Assembly (NCBI GenBank): GCA_963779755.1
Contig: CAVZZO010000003.1
Coordinates: 704,939 to 768,938 of the forward strand
Length of the DNA stretch: 64,000 nucleotides
Source of the DNA: an uncultured Gemmatimonadales bacterium
GTDB lineage: Bacteria; Gemmatimonadota; Gemmatimonadetes; Gemmatimonadales; GWC2-71-9
Direction: 5' to 3'
In this document: in pieces, positions 5,326-45,339 of the stretch
Position numbering within the stretch: position 1 is the stretch's first letter
How the letters are laid out: each line of letters starts with the position of its first letter
Program-made: the position numbers and the translations under genes
Notes under the pieces: generated by a model
What the model was told of the DNA's origin: nothing
The model's input: only the letters and a program-made list of their open reading frames with translations
Database searches by the model: none

Positions 5326-5398
5326 CCGGGCGAAGATGGCCCCGCGGCACGAAACCGCGGCACCACCATCGCCCGGCACACGGCAAAAGAGTGCGGTA

Positions 5399-5902
5399 CT
5401 ACCAGCGCACCCGGCCTCCCGCGAGCAGGGCCATGAATGCCGGCTGCCCCGCACCGCCGCTGTTCTGCAGGCTGGCGTGCCAGCGTCCCTCCAGGATCAG
5501 GGCCCAGCCCTCTCCCGCCGGGCTCCAGGCGGCCCCCAGGCCGGCGCTGCCGCTGAAGAGGTTGATCCCCACCGGGCCGCGAAACTCGCCCTGGGCCAGG
5601 CCGCCCACGGCGTAGAGCGACGGCGCGGTGCGAAGCAGCCGCACCCGTACCACCCCGCCCAGCATGGTGGCGCGGCCGTCGCCCCCGAAGTGGTAGTAAC
5701 CCACTTCCGGGCCGAGAGTGAGCGGTCCGAGGACAAAGGCAAAGCTCGCCGCCCCGCCCAGGGCGCCGCCCTGAATCGGCCCTCCGGCCGCCCCGGCGTA
5801 GCCGCCGGCAACCGACAACTCGCCGATATGCCGCTGCGCGGCCACCGAAGCCGGCAGGAGGCCGAGCAGCAGCAGGAGCGCAATCCGGCGGATGGCACTC
5901 AT
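5399..5902 (-). CDS. Small outer-membrane beta-barrel protein (predicted)
   Basis: Signal peptide MSAIRRIALLLLLGLLPASVAAQ. Gly/aromatic-rich alternating strands ending ...LLAGGRVRW. Confidence 0.65.
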   Translation of the reverse strand: MSAIRRIALLLLLGLLPASVAAQRHIGELSVAGGYAGAAGGPIQGGALGGAASFAFVLGPLTLGPEVGYYHFGGDGRATMLGGVVRVRLLRTAPSLYAVGGLAQGEFRGPVGINLFSGSAGLGAAWSPAGEGWALILEGRWHASLQNSGGAGQPAFMALLAGGRVRW

Positions 5903-19380: not shown

Positions 19381-19650
19381 TCAGTCCTCGGGCCTCTTCC
19401 CCGTGGTTAGCATTCGCTCGGCGAAATCCACCCGCTCCTCCAGCTCCAGCAGCCGGGCGCGCTCCGCCTCCAGCTCGGCCACCTGGCCTTCCAGGGCTGC
19501 GAGCCGCTGCTGCACCTCCGGCCCGATCTTGCCCGGCTCCCCCTTGATCCAGATGGCCCGGGTAGCGGCGATCGCCGCGTACGCGCCCACGGGAATGAAC
19601 ACGACCGCGACGGCGATGATCAGCAGCTTGACCAGGGTCTCGAACTCCAT
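19381..19650 (-). CDS. Array member 7: small single-pass membrane coiled-coil protein, LxFAERLL family
   Basis: 89 aa. TM helix LVKLLIIAVAVVFIPVGAYAAIAA and C-terminal LLELEERVDFAERMLTTGKRPED. GAAGGA RBS. Confidence 0.8.
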   Translation of the reverse strand: MEFETLVKLLIIAVAVVFIPVGAYAAIAATRAIWIKGEPGKIGPEVQQRLAALEGQVAELEAERARLLELEERVDFAERMLTTGKRPED

Positions 19651-19654
19651 GCGT

Positions 19655-19738
19655 TCAGTCCTTCTTGCCGGCGGCGAGCAGTCGTTCGGCGAAATCGATC
19701 AGCGTGGTGGTAGCCACATCGGCCATGATGGGATCCAT
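19655..19738 (-). pseudogene. Decayed eighth array member (27-codon remnant retaining the motif)
   Basis: MDPIMADVATTTLIDFAERLLAAGKKD. It has no TM segment or coiled coil and is wedged between members 6 and 7. Confidence 0.55.
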
Positions 19739-19741
19739 GGC

Positions 19742-20095
19742 TCACCCCTCTCCCCGGGGGACGGCGGCGCTGTCCCGACCCCGCGCCAACAACCGCTCCG
19801 CGAAATCCACCCGCTCCTCCAGCTCGACCAGCCGGGCCCGCATGTCCTCGATTTCCGCCGCGTTCTCTTCCGGAAGCTGGCCGGCGCCTCCCCGCGCCGA
19901 GCCGTCGATCCACCGCGCCAGCGCCTTGCCTACCGGGCCGCGCAGCGTGATGGTGGCGGCAATGGCGGCGGCGATCATGGCCGGGACCGCAAAGTCCTCG
20001 CCGATCACCACTGAAAGGGCGATGAAGGCGCCGATCAGCCCCAGCCCGATGGCACCGACGGCGAAGCCGAGTCCCGAGGGCAGTTGGCGGTCCAT
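19742..20095 (-). CDS. Array member 6: two hydrophobic segments plus coiled coil, LxFAERLL family
   Basis: 117 aa. …LRGPVGKALARWIDG…IEDMRARLVELEERVDFAERLLARG. Confidence 0.8.
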   Translation of the reverse strand: MDRQLPSGLGFAVGAIGLGLIGAFIALSVVIGEDFAVPAMIAAAIAATITLRGPVGKALARWIDGSARGGAGQLPEENAAEIEDMRARLVELEERVDFAERLLARGRDSAAVPRGEG

Positions 20096-20111
20096 ATGCA
20101 GTCTCCGGTCC

Positions 20112-20396
20112 TCAGTCCCCGGCCTTCACGGCATTACGCGGCTGCGCCAGAAGGCGCTCGGCGAACTCCAGCCGCTCTTCCAGCTCGTAGACCCGCTGCT
20201 CCAGCCCCTGCATCGCCTCCACCCGGCCGTGCAGTTCCTCCAGCTCGGTGCTGACGGCCGGATCGCCTCCGCCCCGCTTACCCCGCACCCAGGCCTCGAC
20301 CGCCCGCCCCAGGGGGCCGCGGAGGATCAGCACCGCGGAGGCGCACACCGCAAGCATGGTGGTGACGAAGACAGGCGCGATATCTCCAGGCGGCAT
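20112..20396 (-). CDS. Array member 5, LxFAERLL family
   Basis: 94 aa. TM, LRGPLGRAVEAWVRGKRGG, LEQRVYELEERLEFAERLLAQP. Confidence 0.82.
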   Translation of the reverse strand: MPPGDIAPVFVTTMLAVCASAVLILRGPLGRAVEAWVRGKRGGGDPAVSTELEELHGRVEAMQGLEQRVYELEERLEFAERLLAQPRNAVKAGD

Positions 20397-20407
20397 GGGG
20401 GTTCTTC

Positions 20408-20674
20408 TCAGTCTTCGGGTTTCGTGGCCTTCGGCGGCTGTGCCAGCAGACGTTCGGCAAATTCCAGCCGCTCTTCCAGTTCATAGACCCGCTGTTCCAG
20501 CTCCTGCACCGATTCCAGCCGGGCCCGCATGTCCTCCAGCTCCGGTTCGCTCAGGCCGGCGCCACGCTTCCGCCCGCCCAGGAGGTTCTCCAGCGCTCGG
20601 CCCAGCGGGCCCCGCAGGACCAGCACCCCCGCGGTGCACACCGCGATCAGGGCGATCACATCTCCCGGTTGCAT
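20408..20674 (-). CDS. Array member 4, LxFAERLL family
   Basis: 88 aa from the ATG at 20674, with an AGGAGGGGG RBS. LRGPLGRALENLLGGRKRG…LEQRVYELEERLEFAERLLAQP. The track shows it inside a longer ORF, 20408-20917. Confidence 0.82.
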   Translation of the reverse strand: MQPGDVIALIAVCTAGVLVLRGPLGRALENLLGGRKRGAGLSEPELEDMRARLESVQELEQRVYELEERLEFAERLLAQPPKATKPED

Positions 20675-20690
20675 CGTTGCCCCCTCCTGA

Positions 20691-21005
20691 TCAGGGCTCG
20701 AGCTGCCTGGGCCGCGGCTCCCGGGCGAGTATCCGTTCGGCGAACTCCAGCCGCTCCTCCAGCTCGGCCACCCGCGTCTGCCCTGCTTCCAGCTGCGCCA
20801 GACGGGCCCGGAGATCTTCCAGCTCTTCCCGCACATCCTGATCGCCGGGATGCCGGCCTTCCAGCCGGCGGCCGATGGCCCGGGCGATGGGCCAGAGGAT
20901 GAGCAGCCCGGCCACAATGGCCACCACGATGAGCAGGGCCGTGGTTCGCGGATCCATGGGCAGGGAGGGGACCGGCGGCACCTGAACCGTTTGCAGCGTC
21001 AGCAT
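20691..21005 (-). CDS. Array member 3, LxFAERLL family
   Basis: 104 aa (or 88 aa from the ATG at 20957). TM ALLIVVAIVAGLLILWPIA, LEDLRARLAQLE…VAELEERLEFAERILA. Confidence 0.8.
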   Translation of the reverse strand: MLTLQTVQVPPVPSLPMDPRTTALLIVVAIVAGLLILWPIARAIGRRLEGRHPGDQDVREELEDLRARLAQLEAGQTRVAELEERLEFAERILAREPRPRQLEP

Positions 21006-23258: not shown

Positions 23259-23335
23259 GGGGAGCGGTCGAGAGTCTCGAGAGGGTCGAGTAGATCGGAC
23301 CTCGACCCTCTCGACCCCTTCGACCCCCTCGACCC
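23259..23335. repeat. Oligomer-built hairpin (GGTCGAG-type arms)
   Basis: Perfect 14-bp core: TCGAGAGGGTCGAG (23277-23290) with CTCGACCCTCTCGA (23301-23314). It is flanked by further CTCGACCC-like units. Confidence 0.7.
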
Positions 23336-23575: not shown

Positions 23576-23645
23576 GCGGGAACGGGGAAAGGGGAAAGGG
23601 GAAAGGGGAAAGGACGCTTCCCGCTTCCCCATTCCCTTTTCCCGC
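23576..23645. repeat. Oligomer-built hairpin, (GGGGAAA)x4 arm against a TTCCC-rich arm
   Basis: GCGGGAACGGGGAAAGGGGAAAGGGGAAAGGGGAAAGG acgc TTCCCGCTTCCCCATTCCCTTTTCCCGC, directly 3' of the DPP-IV stop. Confidence 0.7.
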
Positions 23646-25885: not shown

Positions 25886-25985
25886 TCAGGAAGGTCGAAG
25901 GTCGAAGGTCGAAGGTCCGAGGTCAGAGGTCTGCGCCGATCCCAGGCCGTGCTCGACTTCGACCCTGGACCTTTGACCTTGAACC
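25886..25985. repeat. Oligomer-built hairpin, (GGTCGAA)n arm
   Basis: GGTCGAAGGTCGAAGGTCGAAGGTCCGAGGTCAGAGGTC … CTCGACTTCGACCCTGGACCTTTGACCTTGAACC, between the uvrA stop and the DPP-IV start. Confidence 0.65.
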
Positions 25986-25990
25986 GTTTC

Positions 25991-28942
<2,952 letters not shown>

Positions 28943-34390: not shown

Positions 34391-34411
34391 CCCTTCCCCG
34401 CCCCGGCTCCT

Positions 34412-34539
34412 GGAATCAGGAATCAGGCACCGGGGACCGGGGACCGGGCGTACGACAGGGCACTACCTGGTTCCTGGTCCCTGGTCCCAGATTCCTGGTT
34501 CCCGATTCCGATTCCCCATTCCCGTTTCCCAATTCCCCT
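34412..34539. repeat. Composite oligomer-built hairpin (GGAATCA / GGGGACC units) plus a CCCCATTCCCGTTTCCC tail
   Basis: GGAATCAGGAATCAGGCACCGGGGACCGGGGACCGGG (34412-34448) against CCTGGTTCCTGGTCCCTGGTCCCAGATTCCTGGTTCCCGATTCCGATTCC (34466-34515). The tail at 34514-34530 matches 23627-23643 with one mismatch. Confidence 0.7.
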
Positions 34540-34546
34540 GACCACG

Positions 34547-35596
34547 ATGACCTCTCCCCGACTCGTCGACCTCTTCTCCGACACCGTCACCCGCCCTCCC
34601 CGCGAGATGCGCGCCTTCATGGCCGCAGCCGAGGTGGGGGATGAGCAACGCGGACTCGATCCCACCGTCAATCTGCTGCAGGAGATGGTCGCCGACTTGC
34701 TGGGCAAGGAGGCCGCTCTGTTCCTGCCCAGCGGGACCATGTGCAACCAGATCTCCTTCGCCGTGCACTGCCGCGCGGGCGACGAGATCATCATGGATGT
34801 TCTGGCCCACCCGTACAACTTCGAGGCGGGAGGGCCCACGGCCCTGGTGGGCGCCGGCGTCCGGACGGTCGCGGGAGACCGCGGCCGCTACACTGCCGCG
34901 CAGGTCGAGGCCGCCATCCGCCGCGACCATAATCATGATCCGCGTACCCGGGCGATCTCGGTGGAACAGACCACCAATATTCACGGCGGGGCTATCTGGC
35001 CGCTGGCCCAGGTGCGCGAGGTCTGTGCCGCCGCCGAACGGCGGGGGCTGCGGCGGCATCTGGACGGTGCCCGGCTGCTGAATGCGGTGGTGGCCACCGG
35101 CATTCCGGCGCGGGAATGGGCCGCTACCTTCGAGTCGGCCTGGGTGGATCTCAGCAAGGGGCTGGGTGCACCGGTAGGCGCGGTGCTAGCCGGGAGCCGC
35201 GACTTCATCGAGGCGGCCTGGCCCTGGAAGCACCGGCTGGGCGGGGCCATGCGGCAGGCGGGGATCATCGCGGCGGCGGGGGTGTACGCCCTGCGGCACA
35301 ACGTGGAGCGGCTGGCGGACGATCACGCCAACGCGAAGACGCTGGCGAAAGGGCTGGCGGAGATCCCGGGGATACGGCTCGACCCGGCGACCGTCGAGAC
35401 CAATATCGTGGTGTTCGACATTCGCGGGACGGGTCTCCGCGCCGAGGACGCCGCCCGGCGGCTGGAGCAGGCCGGCGTGAGCTTCAGCGTCGTGGGACCC
35501 ACCATGCTCCGGGCGGTGACCCACCTGGATGTGAGCGCAGAGGATGTGCAGTACGCGGTCGAAGCAACCGCACGAGGACTAGGGAGTGAGGCGTGA
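34547..35596 (+). CDS. ltaE: Low-specificity L-threonine aldolase (PLP)
   Basis: MTSPRLVDLFSDTVTRPPREMRAFMAAAEVGDEQRGLDPTVNLLQEMVADLLGKEAALFLPSGTMCNQI… with the PLP-lysine context DLSKGLGAPVG. Confidence 0.88.
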   Translation: MTSPRLVDLFSDTVTRPPREMRAFMAAAEVGDEQRGLDPTVNLLQEMVADLLGKEAALFLPSGTMCNQISFAVHCRAGDEIIMDVLAHPYNFEAGGPTALVGAGVRTVAGDRGRYTAAQVEAAIRRDHNHDPRTRAISVEQTTNIHGGAIWPLAQVREVCAAAERRGLRRHLDGARLLNAVVATGIPAREWAATFESAWVDLSKGLGAPVGAVLAGSRDFIEAAWPWKHRLGGAMRQAGIIAAAGVYALRHNVERLADDHANAKTLAKGLAEIPGIRLDPATVETNIVVFDIRGTGLRAEDAARRLEQAGVSFSVVGPTMLRAVTHLDVSAEDVQYAVEATARGLGSEA

Positions 35597-36155
35597 GTGG
35601 GACGGACAGGCGGCAGGACGGCAGGACGGCAAGGCGGCAAGGACGGCAGGACGGCAGGACGGCAGGACGGCAAGGCGGCAGGACGGCAAGAGCGAGCCCG
35701 AAGCCGATGCCTCCCGGAGCGCATGTCAGGAGCGCCCGCCGGTGGATGGTGGATCTGATCGCCGCGAAGCGATCCGTCGGCGCGCGAAGGGAGGCTCGGC
35801 GAGGGCGAGCGAGAGCGAACGGGCTGAGACGTGAGTGGGACGGCAAGGCGGCAAGACGGCAAGAGCGAGCCCGAAGCCGATGCCTCCCGGAGCGCGCGTC
35901 AGGAGCGCCCACCGGTGGATGGGGATCTGATCGCCGCGAAGCGATCCGTCGGCGCGCGGAGAGAGGCTCGGCGAGGGCGAGCGAGAGCGAACGGGCTGAG
36001 GCGTGAGTGGGACGGCAGGACGGCAAGACGGCAAGAGCGAGCCCGAAGCCGATGCCTCCCGGAGCGCGCGTCAGGAGCGCCCACCGGTGGATGGGGATCT
36101 GATCGCCGCGAAGCGATCCCTCGGCGCGCGGAGGGAGGCTCGGCGAGGGCGAGCG
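35586..36155 (+). repeat. Three tandem copies of a structured element. Each copy is a GACGGCA(A/G) octamer tract followed by a ~115-bp core with imperfect inverted termini.
   Basis: Copy boundaries at GTGAGGCGTGAGTGGGACGG (35586), CTGAGACGTGAGTGGGACGG (35824) and CTGAGGCGTGAGTGGGACGG (35996). The cores are near-identical. The octamer tract has ~11 units in copy 1 and 3 units in copies 2 and 3. Confidence 0.9.
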
Positions 36156-36209
36156 GTAGAAGGAAAGGACTGAGAGAAATGACTGGGAGAAAGGACCGAG
36201 CGGACGCGC

Positions 36210-36590
36210 TTAATCCGGGCCGTACCCGATCGCCATGGCAATGGCAATGGCAAACATCGCGATGAACGGGGTGAGCCCGAGGAAGATCCCGCCTGCCTCG
36301 CGGTTGGAGGGAGTGAGGGAATCCACCTGGGATAGCGGGAACTCGACCCGACAAGTGTCGCATGCCGAAGGTTGCCAGTACGGCACGCCGCTCACGGTAT
36401 CGGCGCTGATCCGCAGGGCATGAAGGGTCATGTGCCCGTTGCGAGACCAGACCTCCACCTGGTCATGATCGGGCAGGGTATCCGGTGCCAACGGAACCGG
36501 CTGAGCCCGGCCCGCGCACCCGGATGCCAGCGCCCAGCCCAGAATGGCAAGACCCCGCCTAATAGAGCGTGATACCCAGCGACAGTACAT
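36210..36590 (-). CDS. Lipoprotein with a C-terminal hydrophobic segment
   Basis: Lipobox LASGC after MYCRWVSRSIRRGLAILGWA. C-terminal GGIFLGLTPFIAMFAIAIAMAIGYG. It overlaps the upstream beta-barrel gene by 32 nt. Confidence 0.6.
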   Translation of the reverse strand: MYCRWVSRSIRRGLAILGWALASGCAGRAQPVPLAPDTLPDHDQVEVWSRNGHMTLHALRISADTVSGVPYWQPSACDTCRVEFPLSQVDSLTPSNREAGGIFLGLTPFIAMFAIAIAMAIGYGPD

Positions 36591-37122
36591 AGGATGTTTC
36601 CTCCACCCCCCTTCCCGTCAGCAGGTGATGGAATCCAATCTCACCCACACGGCTGTGGCGGACGGTGAATGTCGGCGTAACTCCCACGCTGGAACTCAGC
36701 CGCAATCCATAGCCCGCGCCCGCTAACACCGCCCATCCATCGCCCTCCTCATTCGGCCCGTCGGGAGTCTGGCTGTCGTAGCGTGAACCGCCGACGCCGG
36801 CCTTCAGGAAGAATCCTTCCCGGCCGAACGGGGCATAGACGGCAACAGCTGTCAGGCTCGCAAACTGGTCGCCCACCGTTTCGCGGGTATCCGTATCCAC
36901 CTCCATCCCGACGCGCCAGGAAGGGGACAGCACCAGGCCCGCGGCCAGCAGATAGCCCGCAGCGGGACCACCGCCCGCCCGGGAGCAATGGTCGCAGCGA
37001 AGGTGGAGGCCGCCATAGCCGAAGCCGGCGCCGAACCAGGCGTGGCCGGGCTGATTCTTCTGCGCGGCGATGGGGGAGGATGTCGCCACCGCGAGGACCG
37101 GGAGGACGAAAAATGCGCGCAT
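36559..37122 (-). CDS. Small outer-membrane beta-barrel protein (predicted)
   Basis: Signal peptide MRAFFVLPVLAVATSSPIAAQ. Alternating Gly/aromatic strands ending …SYVLSLGITLY. Confidence 0.65.
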   Translation of the reverse strand: MRAFFVLPVLAVATSSPIAAQKNQPGHAWFGAGFGYGGLHLRCDHCSRAGGGPAAGYLLAAGLVLSPSWRVGMEVDTDTRETVGDQFASLTAVAVYAPFGREGFFLKAGVGGSRYDSQTPDGPNEEGDGWAVLAGAGYGLRLSSSVGVTPTFTVRHSRVGEIGFHHLLTGRGVEETSYVLSLGITLY

Positions 37123-37204
37123 CCGCGAACCGATCCGTTCGAAGACGCACCCATACTCGCAGGCCGGCGTGACCCGCACGTGACCTCAGTTCTCGTCCCG
37201 GTGT

Positions 37205-37317
37205 CGCTCGCCCTCGCCGAGCCTCCCTCTGCGCGCTGACGTGCGCCACTGGGAGAGCTCCCATCATCTTCCGATGGCACATACGCGCGCTGCGGGAGGC
37301 ATCGGCTTCGGGCTCGC
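37205..37317 (-). repeat. Inverted fourth copy of the ~115-bp core (conserved termini, different centre)
   Basis: Its reverse complement shares GCGAGCCCGAAGCCGATGCCTCCCG(G/C)AGCGCGCGT and GCGCGC(G/A)GAGGGAGGCTCGGCGAGGGCGAGCG with the tandem copies. The central ~46 nt differ but are also hairpin-rich (CCATC/GATGG, GGGAG/CTCCC). Confidence 0.85.
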
Positions 37318-37327
37318 GTCAGCTTCG

Positions 37328-37355
37328 CCTCAGTCCTCAGTCCTCAGTCCTCAGT
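37328..37355. repeat. (CCTCAGT)x4 heptanucleotide tandem repeat
   Basis: Four exact units. It overlaps the last codons and the stop of the dehydratase gene and abuts the inverted core copy. Confidence 0.95.
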
Positions 37356-38312
37356 CTCCTTCTCCAAGGATGCCCGCATACACGCCCCGGTCAATATTCC
37401 CCCCGCTCAGCACCACCCCCACCCGGCGGTCCCTCATATCCTCCTTCTCCTTCACCAGCGCGGCCAGCGCGGCGGCGCCCGCCCCTTCGGCCGCATTGTG
37501 CGTGGCGGCGAAGTAGAGCCGGACGGCAGCCCGCATCCGTTCCTCCGAAACCGTTACCACGCGGTCCAGCCCGTGGAACATCACCGCCAACGCCTGAGGG
37601 TCAGGCACGCGGCAGGCCAGCCCGTCGGCGAAGGTATCGGCCGTGCTGGTGGTGAGCAGCTCCCGGTTGCGAAAGGAAAGGGCGTAGGCCGGCGCATTCG
37701 CGGCTACCACCCCGACGATTCTGGTGGAAAGGCCGAGCGCGTTCCTGGCCCCGATCACGCCGCAGGCCCCCGAGCCCATTCCGATGGGGACATACACCGT
37801 GTCCAGGTCACTCACCGCACGGAGCAGTTCGAGCGCATAGGTGGCGACGCCGCGCACCAGGAGGGGATGAAAGGAAGGAATCCGGTGCAGACCACGCTCC
37901 TCCGCCAGTTTCGGCCGGCGAACTCCGCCGCCGCCTGGAAGTCGTGCCCTTCCTCGATCAGCTCGGCCCCCAACGCCCGCATGGACGCGTTCTTCTCCCG
38001 GCTGTTGCCGTGCGGCACCACGATCACGGCCGGCAGCCGAGTGCCGCCTGCGGCGAAGGCGACACTCTGCCCGTGGTTGCCGCGGGTGGCGGTGAGTACG
38101 CCCGATGGCCGCTGCTTTCCCGCAGCCAGGGCCTCCAGGTACACCAGCCCGCCCCGCACCTTGAAGGCGCCGACGGGGGTGTGATTCTCGTGCTTGACCC
38201 ACACCTCGCATCCGCAGGCTTCCGCCAGGAGGGGCCAGGCGATCTGCGGCGTGGGAGCCATGGCGCCGTAGACGAGTTCCGCGGCGGCTTCGAGTTCGGG
38301 GAGCGAGAGCAT
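37351..38312 (-). pseudogene. PLP-dependent threonine/serine dehydratase split by a -1/+2 frame change near 37909-37925
   Basis: The N-terminal frame (38312 down) reads …HENHTPVGAFKVRGG…GAELIEEGHDFQAAAEFAGR. The C-terminal frame reads KLAEERGLHRIPSFHPLLVRGVATYALELL…GMGSGACG… through to the stop at 37351. The two frames join in GCCGGCCGAAAC. Confidence 0.8.
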
Positions 38313-38320
38313 ATTGAAAG

Positions 38321-38375
38321 GTAAGAGGTAAGGCGTGTGACGTGGTTTCGCCGCCGTTCGCGCCTTACCTCTTAC
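38321..38375. repeat. Perfect 15-bp inverted repeat (GGTAAGA/GGTAAGG units) in a divergent spacer
   Basis: GTAAGAGGTAAGGCG (38321-38335) with CGCCTTACCTCTTAC (38361-38375), 25-nt loop. Confidence 0.9.
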
Positions 38376-38496
38376 GCCTCACCTCTGGAGTTCCCCTCTG
38401 CCGCTCGCGAATTCGCTCGCCGTTCCGCGTATTCCCGGTGCCGGCCGGAATCCGCCCCCCTCCTAGCTTGGCCTCCCCTCATCACTGGGAGGCCCC

Positions 38497-40383: not shown

Positions 40384-40650
40384 GACAAGAGAAATGAGGA
40401 AAGAGGAAGGAGAAAAGAGAGAGGCCCTGAGCCCGCCGGTGCCGATCCCCTGAGCGAAGCGGACTGCTCAGCAGCACCGAGCGAACGTCGCAGCGGTGCC
40501 GACGGGCATGGGGAGCCCTGCCTGAACCGGAGACCTCCTGAAGAGGTCAAAGGTCGAAGGTCGAGGGTCGAAGCGAAACAGGGGACCGGGCTCCGCACCC
40601 GATCCCCCGAGTTCGATCCCCCTGAATCCTGACTCCTGAATCCTGACTCC
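40384..40650. repeat. Composite low-complexity and repeat region between convergent genes
   Basis: Purine tract at 40384-40423. GGTCAAAGGTCGAAGGTCGAGGGTCGAAG at 40545-40573 (same unit as 25893-25915). CCTGAATCCTGACTCCTGAATCCTGACTCC at 40621-40650. Confidence 0.75.
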
Positions 40651-40651
40651 T

Positions 40652-44375: not shown

Positions 44376-45161
44376 TCAGCTCGCCTTGGTGGCCTGGAGG
44401 GCCTGCTGACGGAACTCCTCGACCGACCGCTCGTGCTCGGCGTACTCCTGCCGGCCCGCCTTCATTTCGCTGTCATAATGGGCCAGGAAGTCCTTGTAGG
44501 CCTGCTGCAGGTTCTGGTCGTTCTTCTCCCACCGCGCCACCGTCCCCCGGATCATGTAGCCGAACAGATGCCCCGGTTGCTGGGCCAGAATGGTATCGGC
44601 CAGCGCCGTCGGGCCCGCCATGTCTCCCGTATGCGCCTTGAGCAGCGCCAAATGATAGCGGGCGTCGGCATCCACGGTATCGAGCATGCTGTAGGCCGTA
44701 ATGGCCATCGGCGTGAAGGTCGTCACCGTGTTCTGGTCTCCCGACTCCGCCGCCTGCATGACCCGATTATACAGTCGGTCAAAACGCTCCCGGGGGGACA
44801 TGCTGCTGATGTCTGGCGCCGCGCCGGAGGCGGCGTTGGCGAAGGGCGCCGAGGCCACCGGACCAGCCCCCGCCTGGTCGGCGGCCGTGGCCGGCCTGCG
44901 CGTCATCAGAGCTACCAGCGCAATCACCAGGCCAACCCCCGCCACCCCGGCAACGATCCAGGGGAGCCGGTCGCGCCCCGAGCGGCCGCCCCCCGCCGGA
45001 AGGGAGAAACCGCAGCTGGCACAGAACTTTGCAGCGGAACGAACCGAAGCACCGCATTTCGGGCACGAAGCCTGGCCCAGACCGGCGCCGCAGGAGCTGC
45101 AGAACTTGCCACTCGCTGGCGCCCCACAGGAGGGACAGGTGGCCGCGTTCGGGGTACTCAT
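44376..45161 (-). CDS. Membrane protein with an N-terminal double or triple zinc ribbon and a periplasmic helical domain
   Basis: CPSCG…CSSCG…CPKCG…CASCG, TM WIVAGVAGVGLVIALVALM, then a helical TPR-like C-terminal domain. Confidence 0.7.
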   Translation of the reverse strand: MSTPNAATCPSCGAPASGKFCSSCGAGLGQASCPKCGASVRSAAKFCASCGFSLPAGGGRSGRDRLPWIVAGVAGVGLVIALVALMTRRPATAADQAGAGPVASAPFANAASGAAPDISSMSPRERFDRLYNRVMQAAESGDQNTVTTFTPMAITAYSMLDTVDADARYHLALLKAHTGDMAGPTALADTILAQQPGHLFGYMIRGTVARWEKNDQNLQQAYKDFLAHYDSEMKAGRQEYAEHERSVEEFRQQALQATKAS

Positions 45162-45267
45162 GGGACGAAAGTGCCTCTTGGGATATAAGGAGGCGCGGAA
45201 CCCTTTTCCGCACGTGGGGAGGATATAGCCACTGCCGCGCTTTTGGGAGGGGGATGCAGAACTTCAC

Positions 45268-45321
45268 CGCAGAGGCGCAGAGGCGCAGAGGCGCGGAGAA
45301 ACGGCCTCTGCGCCTCTGTGG
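45268..45321 (-). terminator. (GCAGAGGC)x3 hairpin 3' of hypE
   Basis: Units at 45269-45292. Perfect 15-bp stem CAGAGGCGCAGAGGC (45278-45292) with GCCTCTGCGCCTCTG (45304-45318). Confidence 0.6.
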
Positions 45322-45339
45322 TAATATCTCACTACTCTC

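Follow-up and report, generated by a model that had tools for sequence, protein, structure and literature searches.

A palindromic repeat at both ends of a two-gene insertion between ltaE and a threonine dehydratase gene in an uncultured Gemmatimonadales bacterium

Introduction

What is the array of structured repeats that begins inside the last codons of ltaE in an uncultured Gemmatimonadales bacterium, and how might it have come to lie there? The array occupies positions 35586-36155 of the 64,000-nucleotide stretch analyzed here (contig CAVZZO010000003.1, positions 704,939 to 768,938 of the forward strand), which we call the window and whose numbering is used throughout. An initial annotation had proposed either an element resembling MITEs (miniature inverted-repeat transposable elements) or repetitive extragenic palindromic (REP) sequences, or a family of structured non-coding RNAs. 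Almost nothing has been described of the mobile or repeated DNA of Gemmatimonadota-like soil bacteria, and we found no paper linking Gemmatimonadota to MITE or REP elements. We favor, with slightly better than even confidence, the reading that the core of the repeat is a lineage-restricted, non-autonomous palindromic repeat of the kind represented by MITEs, ERIC (enterobacterial repetitive intergenic consensus) sequences and Correia elements, and that it was tandemly amplified on one side of a two-gene insertion.

Results

Four copies of a palindromic core

The array consists of three tandem core-bearing units, as the initial annotation had described. Tandem Repeats Finder gave a 172-bp period with 2.8 copies and 96% matches over 35665-36155, and the units c1, c2 and c3 are 94-97% identical to one another, in keeping with cores that had been called almost identical. 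Both core termini that had been quoted are present, in place and exact, in all three units, and the array does start within the last ltaE codons, the TGA stop at 35594-35596 falling inside the first leader. As for the two interior motifs that had been reported, the GATCGC-cgcgaa-GCGATC hairpin occurs in c1 to c3; CCACCGGTGG is found only in c2 and c3, and c1 has CCGCCGGTGG. The core measures 113-120 bp, reads 5'-GCGAGCCCGAAGCCGATGCCTCCC...GGGAGGCTCGGCGAGGGCGAGCG-3' and has ends of the CGCGAGCCCGAAGCCGATGCC type. A fourth copy, c4, had been missed: it is inverted with respect to c1-c3 and lies 1.05 kb away. The units and cores are:

35586-35823, plus strand: tandem unit c1
35824-35995, plus strand: tandem unit c2
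35996-36160, plus strand: tandem unit c3
35692-35811, plus strand: core copy c1, covariance model 146 bits; the most diverged of c1-c3, with CGCATG in the stem instead of CGCGCG
35865-35983, plus strand: core copy c2, covariance model 150 bits
36037-36155, plus strand: core copy c3, covariance model 148 bits
37205-37317, minus strand: core copy c4, covariance model 109 bits, minimum free energy (MFE) -71 kcal/mol, z -6.1; matches the 5' and 3' arm motifs

Each terminus pattern has four matches in the window, against 0.00-0.01 expected from shuffles. A covariance model of the four copies, run unfiltered across the entire window, gave them 109-150 bits and the best unrelated match 16 bits; a BLAST comparison of the window with itself agreed with this result.

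The four copies are alike at their ends. Between c1-c3 and c4, the 5' arm is identical at 32-34 of 35 nt and the 3' arm at 31 of 34, while the interior shows 59% identity compared to 50 +/- 4% for shuffled interiors. With the arms conserved and the interior barely above shuffles, the element can be described as two constant arms around a free interior. The arms form terminal inverted repeats: GCGAGCCCGAAGCCGATGCCTCCC and the reverse complement of GGGAGGCTCGGCGAGGGCGAGC match at about 18 of 24 columns with 2 indels. The two termini, described initially as imperfect inverted repeats, indeed pair, and each copy is predicted to fold as one long imperfect stem with an MFE of -65.7 to -71 kcal/mol (z -2.0 to -6.1 against shuffles). 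The paired segments are GCGAG/CGAGC with tandem G.A, CCC/GGG, GCCGA/UCGGC, a bulged U, GCCUCCC/GGGAGGC and CGCGCG/CGCGCG, and two small hairpins cap the stem. The fold of the sense strand is more stable by about 5 kcal/mol.

The array is non-coding. GC content is flat over the codon positions (about 0.7/0.7/0.7) in every long open reading frame (ORF) that crosses it, compared to 0.82-0.90 at third codon positions (GC3) in real genes, and a six-frame chimeric query of c2, c3 and c4 found no homologue among 5.8 billion proteins. The sense strand of the array is 45% G, 20% A, 27% C and 8% T, with a GC skew of +0.25 and an AT skew of about +0.45-0.55; this purine-rich, T-poor strand covers the element and its flanks (35586-36160, and 37190-37360 on the minus strand).

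The cores stand at the ends of an insertion between convergent genes

The interval between ltaE and the gene for threonine dehydratase (PALP) contains, in order, a leader, octamers and c1-c2-c3 on the plus strand, a trailer, a 126-aa gene, a gene for a small outer-membrane protein (OMP) and c4, these three on the minus strand, and a heptamer tract. The features that accompany the cores are:

34547-35596, plus strand: ltaE (threonine aldolase), Pfam PF01212 Beta_elim_lyase, E=8e-96; TGA stop 35594-35596
35570-35605, plus strand: leader, a decayed heptamer tract (GGACTGA/GGCGTGA type) with stops in all three frames (TAG 35580, TGA 35587, TGA 35594)
36156-36209, plus strand: purine-rich trailer that begins GTAGAAGGA, with 13-mer repeats GAAAGGACTGAGA x2.9 (Tandem Repeats Finder)
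36210-36590, minus strand: cargo gene 1, 126 aa, with a lipoprotein-like N-terminus and a hydrophobic C-terminus; no Pfam match
36559-37122, minus strand: cargo gene 2, OMP, 187 aa, a small beta-barrel protein of the outer membrane; signal peptide (MRAFFVLPVLAVA...) and weak PF03797 match
37328-37356, minus strand: heptamer tract (GACTGAG)x4 that contains the PALP stop (37351-37353), with TGA in all three frames
37351-38378, minus strand: PALP, its Pfam halves in two frames

In four relatives ltaE and PALP are convergent neighbors whose stop codons are -11 (L021), 77 (L022), 12 (L024) and 22 (L025) nt apart; in the window the distance is 1,754 nt. The window is otherwise collinear with L019 and L022 over uvrA, TPR, transglutaminase-like, ABC_tran, ABC_tran_2 and ltaE and, beyond ltaE, over a ~410-aa gene, a ~200-aa gene, DZR, CcmH and CcmF. 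The two cargo genes have no homologue at the relatives' ltaE-PALP loci, and their GC3 is 0.74-0.75 compared to 0.82-0.90 in the adjacent genes. Cores are found at both ends of the insertion, inverted and with their 5' arms outward, and 32-nt near-perfect inverted repeats (36124-36155 and 37205-37236) flank the 1.05-kb two-gene segment. The spacer comparison thus indicates that this neighborhood has a single lineage-specific insertion and that the two element loci form its ends.

No transposase had been noticed nearby, and Pfam scans of about 46 ORFs over the 64 kb, with a few gaps unscanned, revealed neither a transposase nor an integrase. Because the array is non-coding and no transposase was seen in the window, the element appears to be non-autonomous.

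OMP has about 400 representative homologues, the closest of which (P0241, 63% identity) is annotated PF13505 OMP_b-brl. The closest named homologues of ltaE and PALP, at 65-72% identity, come from metagenome-assembled genomes of Gemmatimonadales or Gemmatimonadota. PALP is split on the minus strand by a 1-nt frameshift at about 37905-37915, at CGAAACTGG; the read-through sequence is, along its full length, 75% identical to P0122, and the frameshift is either the mark of a pseudogene or a homopolymer sequencing error. Among the relatives, PALP and ltaE of L021 overlap by 11 nt across a (CCGGCGT)x2 tract, and the spacer of L022 is a hairpin of (CGCAGAGG)-type repeats.

The element recurs in related soil organisms

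A 1,087-nt contig of a more distant relative (L026), from the same sequencing run as the relative L015, carries a homologue of OMP (63% amino-acid identity) with a homologue of the 126-aa gene adjacent to it, and is 68% identical to the window cargo over 945 nt. The contig opens with 36 nt that match a reverse-complemented c4-type 5' arm at 35 positions. The covariance model scored this arm, which is cut by the contig end, at 28.6 bits (E=8e-6), and against the 68% background a 35/36 match has a binomial P of ~2e-5. In both genomes the element lies upstream of OMP in nearly the same place; however, it is flipped, with the 3' arm next to OMP in the window and the 5' arm next to it in L026. This flip is unattainable by recombination between two inverted cores and requires insertion or re-insertion in either orientation. 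The L026 contig ends inside the element and the ltaE contig of the same run ends in the heptamer tract, as at repeats, where assemblies typically break.

A second organism is represented by a soil metagenome (X1), the sole public run with ~10% of the window's words; two further runs, X2 and X3, contained chance fragments only. One X1 contig, whose OMP region shares ~98% identity with the window, connects the OMP flank to the 3' arm, as at the c4/OMP junction. The other (196 nt, matched to window positions 36124-36164 and 37256-37351) carries a mosaic copy in which the heptamer tract is followed by a 5' arm with one single-nucleotide difference, the 5' half of a c4-like interior, a different 3' half, a 3' arm and GTAGAAGGA. 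This last stretch is placed as after c3, and it is followed by CTGAACCGAATGACCGACACACTGCAATCC, which is absent from the window. Judged by these sequences, the data point to at least two differently flanked element copies in the X1 organism. The 9-mer CGAATGACC stands beside the element in the 196-nt contig and in L026.

The initial annotation had left room for an element confined to this one locus. The inverted c4, 1.05 kb off, and the copies in two related soil organisms show that it is not. Applied to the relatives' loci L015-L025, the covariance model gave nothing above ~14 bits.

Short tandem repeats in the units and at gene ends

Each core of the array is preceded by an octamer tract, of 11, 3 and 3 units, as had been described:

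35600-35688, plus strand: octamer microsatellite (GGACGGCA), 11.0 units (Tandem Repeats Finder)
35839-35864 and 36011-36036, plus strand: octamer tracts (GGACGGCA), 3.2 units each (Tandem Repeats Finder)

However, the proposal that the tract is a component of the repeated unit did not hold. Dimers of the octamer (GACGGCAR) have 25 matches at five loci, compared to 0.32 expected, and these loci include uvrA and spacers between tRNA genes; c4 is without octamers and is preceded by (GACTGAG)x4. The octamer tract is a genome-wide microsatellite, independent of the core, and the difference between 11 and 3 units would reflect ordinary microsatellite slippage.

In uvrA, (GGACGGCA)x4 lies in frame at 28186-28219 on the minus strand and encodes GRQDGRQDGRQ within an extended loop; uvrA of the syntenic relative L019 has a different heptamer, (CTTGACT)x4.3 at 5390-5419, at a similar distance from the start. 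The octamer is also found between tRNA genes at 1594-1918. Four tRNA genes (Thr, Gly, Tyr, Thr) occupy 1514-2164 beside rpmG-like, secE-like and nusG genes; the octamer, its orientation alternating, makes up the first three spacers among the Thr, Gly and Tyr tRNAs and so creates hairpins between them. A further tRNA call by ARAGORN, a 102-nt tRNA-Arg(CCG) at 44937-45038 on the minus strand with its anticodon at position 40, lies inside an apparent ORF for a zinc-ribbon membrane protein (MSTPNAATCPSCGAP...) and is probably a false positive.

The 20-nt leader, which had been taken as part of the element, proved instead to be a decayed heptamer tract of the ltaE end. In L015, the closest ltaE relative (83% amino-acid identity), ltaE ends in a clean (GGCGTGA)n tract with the same GAG GCG TGA. 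Read each in the sense of its own gene, the ltaE-side and PALP-side flanks are identical at 17 of 20 positions (GAGGACTAGGGAGTGAGGCG and GAGGACTGAGGACTGAGGCG). Both gene ends have stops in three frames within ~20 nt (35580-35596 and 37330-37353), and repeat sequence encodes the C-terminal residues of ltaE (GSEA*) and PALP (GEGD*).

Tracts of 7-8-nt tandem repeats are present in most intergenic regions of the window, and in L019 as well, often with an inverted complement that yields a long hairpin. Examples in the window are 34408-34537, 23266-23335, 23578-23613, 25890-25931, 40621-40651 and 45266-45322; examples in relatives are L022 6958-7034 and L019 2194-2225 and 3165-3200. The pair (CGCAGAGG)n/(CCTCTGCG)n is found both at window 45266-45322 and between PALP and ltaE in L022. 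Such repeat-built hairpins may substitute for classical terminators in this lineage. Longer repeats of another kind lie at 19409-20825, where diverged ~300-430-nt repeats (68-92% identity) run over several small minus-strand ORFs without a Pfam match; they adjoin PspA and a CesT-like chaperone gene and resemble tandem paralogous small genes.

A model for insertion and amplification

Constant arms, a free interior, both orientations, the lack of coding, assembly breaks and a position at insertion ends together fit an element of the MITE/ERIC/Correia type. In the model that we favor, the arms would be terminal inverted repeats for a transposase or recombinase encoded elsewhere in the genome, and a pair of elements would have brought in, or come with, the two-gene cargo, like a composite transposon bounded by miniature elements. 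The insertion would have gone into the apex of a heptamer-repeat hairpin between convergent ltaE and PALP. The similarity of the outer flanks, each in its own gene's sense, is what would be expected if a composite had landed in the apex of such a palindromic hairpin, and L022 retains a hairpin of this sort.

Unequal crossing-over or slippage could then have turned the ltaE-side copy into three, the amplified unit being 172 bp long and including the ltaE stop region. Units 2 and 3 copy the last 11-14 nt of ltaE, which are host sequence in L015, and the triplet is thus best explained as a later 172-bp tandem duplication. The three units look like one segmental tandem duplication that took in the ltaE stop region, not like three separate insertions. 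The octamer tracts before the cores may expand and contract independently by slippage. Finally, the hairpins (-65 to -71 kcal/mol) would be transcribed as 3' tails of ltaE and PALP and could act, in either orientation, as putative terminators that lack a U-tract or as barriers to exonucleases. Such a role is plausible, given the lack of any other terminator and the stability of the predicted hairpin in both senses.

Of the two readings in the initial annotation, the first is supported: the element is repeated, hairpin-forming and non-coding, falls in the broad MITE/REP class and is not unique to its locus. It lacks the hallmarks of REP sequences that depend on a REP-associated tyrosine transposase (RAYT). 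A RAYT-dependent REP or bacterial interspersed mosaic element (BIME) was rejected, the element being 113 nt long and GTAG occurring once only, after c3 and not 5' of the copies.

Several observations weigh against a mobile palindromic repeat. Within the element, the arms are only ~75% identical in inverted comparison, no related insertion sequence or transposase is known for the core, and transposition is something that we infer from the sequences. At the site, the outer flanks of the whole composite (AAGA before it and GTCA after it) do not match; there is no clear target-site duplication at c4, at the array or at the composite, with at most 2-3 bp of GA/GAC in flanks that are themselves short tandem repeats. 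No second site of the composite is known, and close relatives offered no empty site. The 64-kb window holds only two element loci, one per strand and adjacent to each other. Searches further afield were likewise negative. Among GTDB species genomes, a search with both arms gave two matches only (Streptomyces and Aeromicrobium), which we attribute to chance because the covariance model scored them at only 18 bits; in JGI metagenomes, all 12 matches to a 20-mer from the arm were without the rest of the element; and viral contigs and plasmids contained no element, the only match being a heptamer tract in Sinorhizobium.

Alternative explanations

The alternative that survives best, although we consider it unlikely, is that the cores are immobile. 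They would be functional intergenic hairpins (terminators lacking a U-tract, 3'-end stabilizers or insulators) derived from local duplication around the inserted genes, and selection on the stem would keep the arms constant. Position speaks for this idea, as ltaE and PALP each have hairpins immediately downstream, in the gene's own sense, no canonical terminator is found in 35300-37600, and the two known loci adjoin each other. So do the folds, which reach -65 to -71 kcal/mol and favor the sense strand by ~5 kcal/mol, and the other repeat-built intergenic hairpins (L022 6958-7034; window 45266-45322 and 34408-34537). However, selection on a stem should tolerate compensation, and the arms match at 35 of 36 positions between genomes whose adjacent coding DNA is 68% identical. 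Moreover, the two genomes differ in orientation, one copy in X1 is differently flanked, and triplication adds nothing obvious to a terminator. A locally selected hairpin accounts for where the cores lie, but neither for arms that are constant at the nucleotide level across genomes nor for the orientation flip.

It is considerably less probable that the arms are sites for a site-specific recombinase, either in attC-like cassette capture or as the inverted repeats of an invertible segment, by which the OMP and 126-aa genes would be switched from the transcription unit of ltaE to that of PALP and back. The conserved imperfect stem with its bulged T, internal loops and variable tip would suit such sites, as would the 32-nt near-perfect inverted repeats around the 1.05-kb two-gene segment, and an X1 contig was reported as an 'opposite strands' joint from 36124 to 37256. 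By contrast, the ends lack GTTRRRY / RYYYAAC core sites, and no integrase or invertase was found among the ~46 ORFs scanned. The X1 joint is due to similarity of the 3' arms: the flank onward from it is not window 36165+ and is found nowhere in the window. In addition, an inversion between the cores would leave a 3' arm by OMP, unlike the arrangement in L026. We therefore rejected both specific forms of the idea: an inversion of 36156-37204, the X1 joint being 3'-arm similarity and the contig's onward flank foreign to the window; and an integron attC site, the ends being GCGAGCC.../...GGGCGAGCG, the orientation to OMP differing between genomes and no integrase being seen in the window.

Slightly less probable again is that each unit encodes a small structured regulatory RNA, either one of a tandem small RNA (sRNA) family or a protein sponge whose GGA motifs would lie in the octamer tract. 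Other bacteria do have sRNAs in tandem arrays. The units here fold stably, GNRA-like loops (GGAA, GCGA) and purine-rich internal loops occur on the sense strand only, and that strand is strongly purine-rich with T at just 8%. Against this, Rfam 15 gave no match in the array, its only matches being spurious microRNA ones (E at least 0.04) at 34408-34513, and neither a sigma-70-like promoter nor a U-tract terminator was found in 35300-37600, so that no unit has a promoter-like site and the idea of a promoter or U-tract terminator for each unit was dropped. GGA is not kept among the octamer variants (AGGCGGCA, AGACGGCA) or in the internal loop of c4, and a CsrA-type sponge was dropped for this reason. 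The array may also fold in alternative registers across units, in which a 3' arm pairs with the 5' arm of the unit that follows.

The pattern of substitution is of no help to an RNA gene. When the copies were examined for compensatory changes, as the initial annotation had suggested doing with a covariance model, none was found in the 24 outer stem pairs: 21 are invariant, and the remaining 3 vary only by unpaired or wobble cells. Without compensatory change, the outer pairs are silent for or against an RNA structure. The differences among c1-c3 are few, and they disrupt pairs instead of compensating. Only two inner pairs differ on both sides; the interiors aligned there are non-homologous, and 26 of 500 shuffles gave the same. 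With no Rfam match, no covariation, no promoter and a strand that flips relative to the same neighboring gene between genomes, the reading as a structured non-coding RNA family is not sustained.

The least probable proposal, a long shot, is that hairpins with constant arms and a variable tip are folded sites for a recombinase that inserts small gene cassettes into repeat-built hairpin terminators between convergent genes, which, if true, would give a phylum with no known example an attC-like system of cassette capture that does without integron core sites.

Discussion

The locus offers a small, defined element with arms that are conserved well beyond the adjacent genes, and a clean before-and-after comparison in the uninterrupted ltaE/PALP junction of four relatives. 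It is a candidate case of a pair of miniature elements importing envelope genes. It also draws attention to an unusual load of 7-8-nt repeats and repeat-built hairpins at gene ends, which may replace classical terminators. For annotation, the element matters in two ways: it breaks short-read assemblies, two metagenome contigs ending there, and it supplies stop codons to the flanking genes.

Comparison with known repeat families

Correia/NEMIS elements are examples of MITEs in Neisseria. The element resembles these and MITEAba12, a 113-bp low-copy MITE of Acinetobacter (PMC6382973), in its length of ~110-120 bp, its terminal inverted repeats, its lack of an ORF and its more variable interior. 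Its core falls within the 50-500 bp expected of a MITE. Like bacterial MITEs in general, it is intergenic, lies near gene ends in both orientations, can be low-copy and would form a long hairpin when transcribed. It differs in that no target-site duplication is recognizable and the arms are only ~75% inverted-identical; the parent insertion sequence is not known here, there is one locus per genome so far, and one side is triplicated.

The arrangement as a whole recalls TIME-COMPs, composites with a miniature element at each end, the pair being in direct or inverted orientation (PMC13367494). In both, a short cargo that relatives lack at the site is enclosed by two copies of a single small non-autonomous element, which are inverted here. 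However, the miniature elements of TIME-COMPs (TIMEs) have a Tn3 origin, 5-bp duplications, 38-bp inverted repeats of the Tn3 type and, in some cases, a res site; nothing of this kind was seen here. Tn6645 was considered as a precedent for a composite bounded by MITEs and set aside, as it is bounded by ISAba3.

ERIC sequences are imperfect palindromes of ~120 bp found in either orientation in transcribed intergenic regions of enterobacteria, and BIMEs form tandem arrays at gene 3' ends, where they can stabilize the upstream mRNA. The element is similar to the ERIC/intergenic repeat unit (IRU) and REP/BIME families in its size (that of ERIC, ~120 bp), its occurrence in either orientation and its tandem array at a gene 3' end. 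By contrast, its sequence is unrelated and its phylum is another; REPs are 20-40 nt long, have a GTAG-type 5' tetranucleotide and are RAYT-dependent, and no RAYT was seen here. Mycobacterial interspersed repetitive units (MIRUs) measure 40-100 bp, are not long palindromes and lie inside operons with translational coupling, all of which sets them apart from the element described here. The likeness to MIRU variable-number tandem repeats is that of a tandem intergenic minisatellite whose ends overlap the stop codon of a flanking gene and whose copy number is likely variable.

The short repeats at this locus have counterparts in the GGGAATC heptamer intergenic repeats of Xanthomonas and Nostoc (PMC4692102) and the TAACTGA intergenic repeats of Beggiatoaceae and cyanobacteria (PMC4679880). 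As in those genomes, the units of (GGACGGCA)n and (GACTGAG)n are 7-8 nt long and present in 3-11 copies, and the tracts are spread over the genome and concentrated right after stop codons; GGACTGA has ACTGA in common with TAACTGA. The units and the phylum are different, and several of the tracts here form inverted, hairpin-forming pairs, some of them inside reading frames. Set beside all of these families, the element would be a new lineage-restricted miniature palindromic repeat in a familiar class, not a new kind of system.

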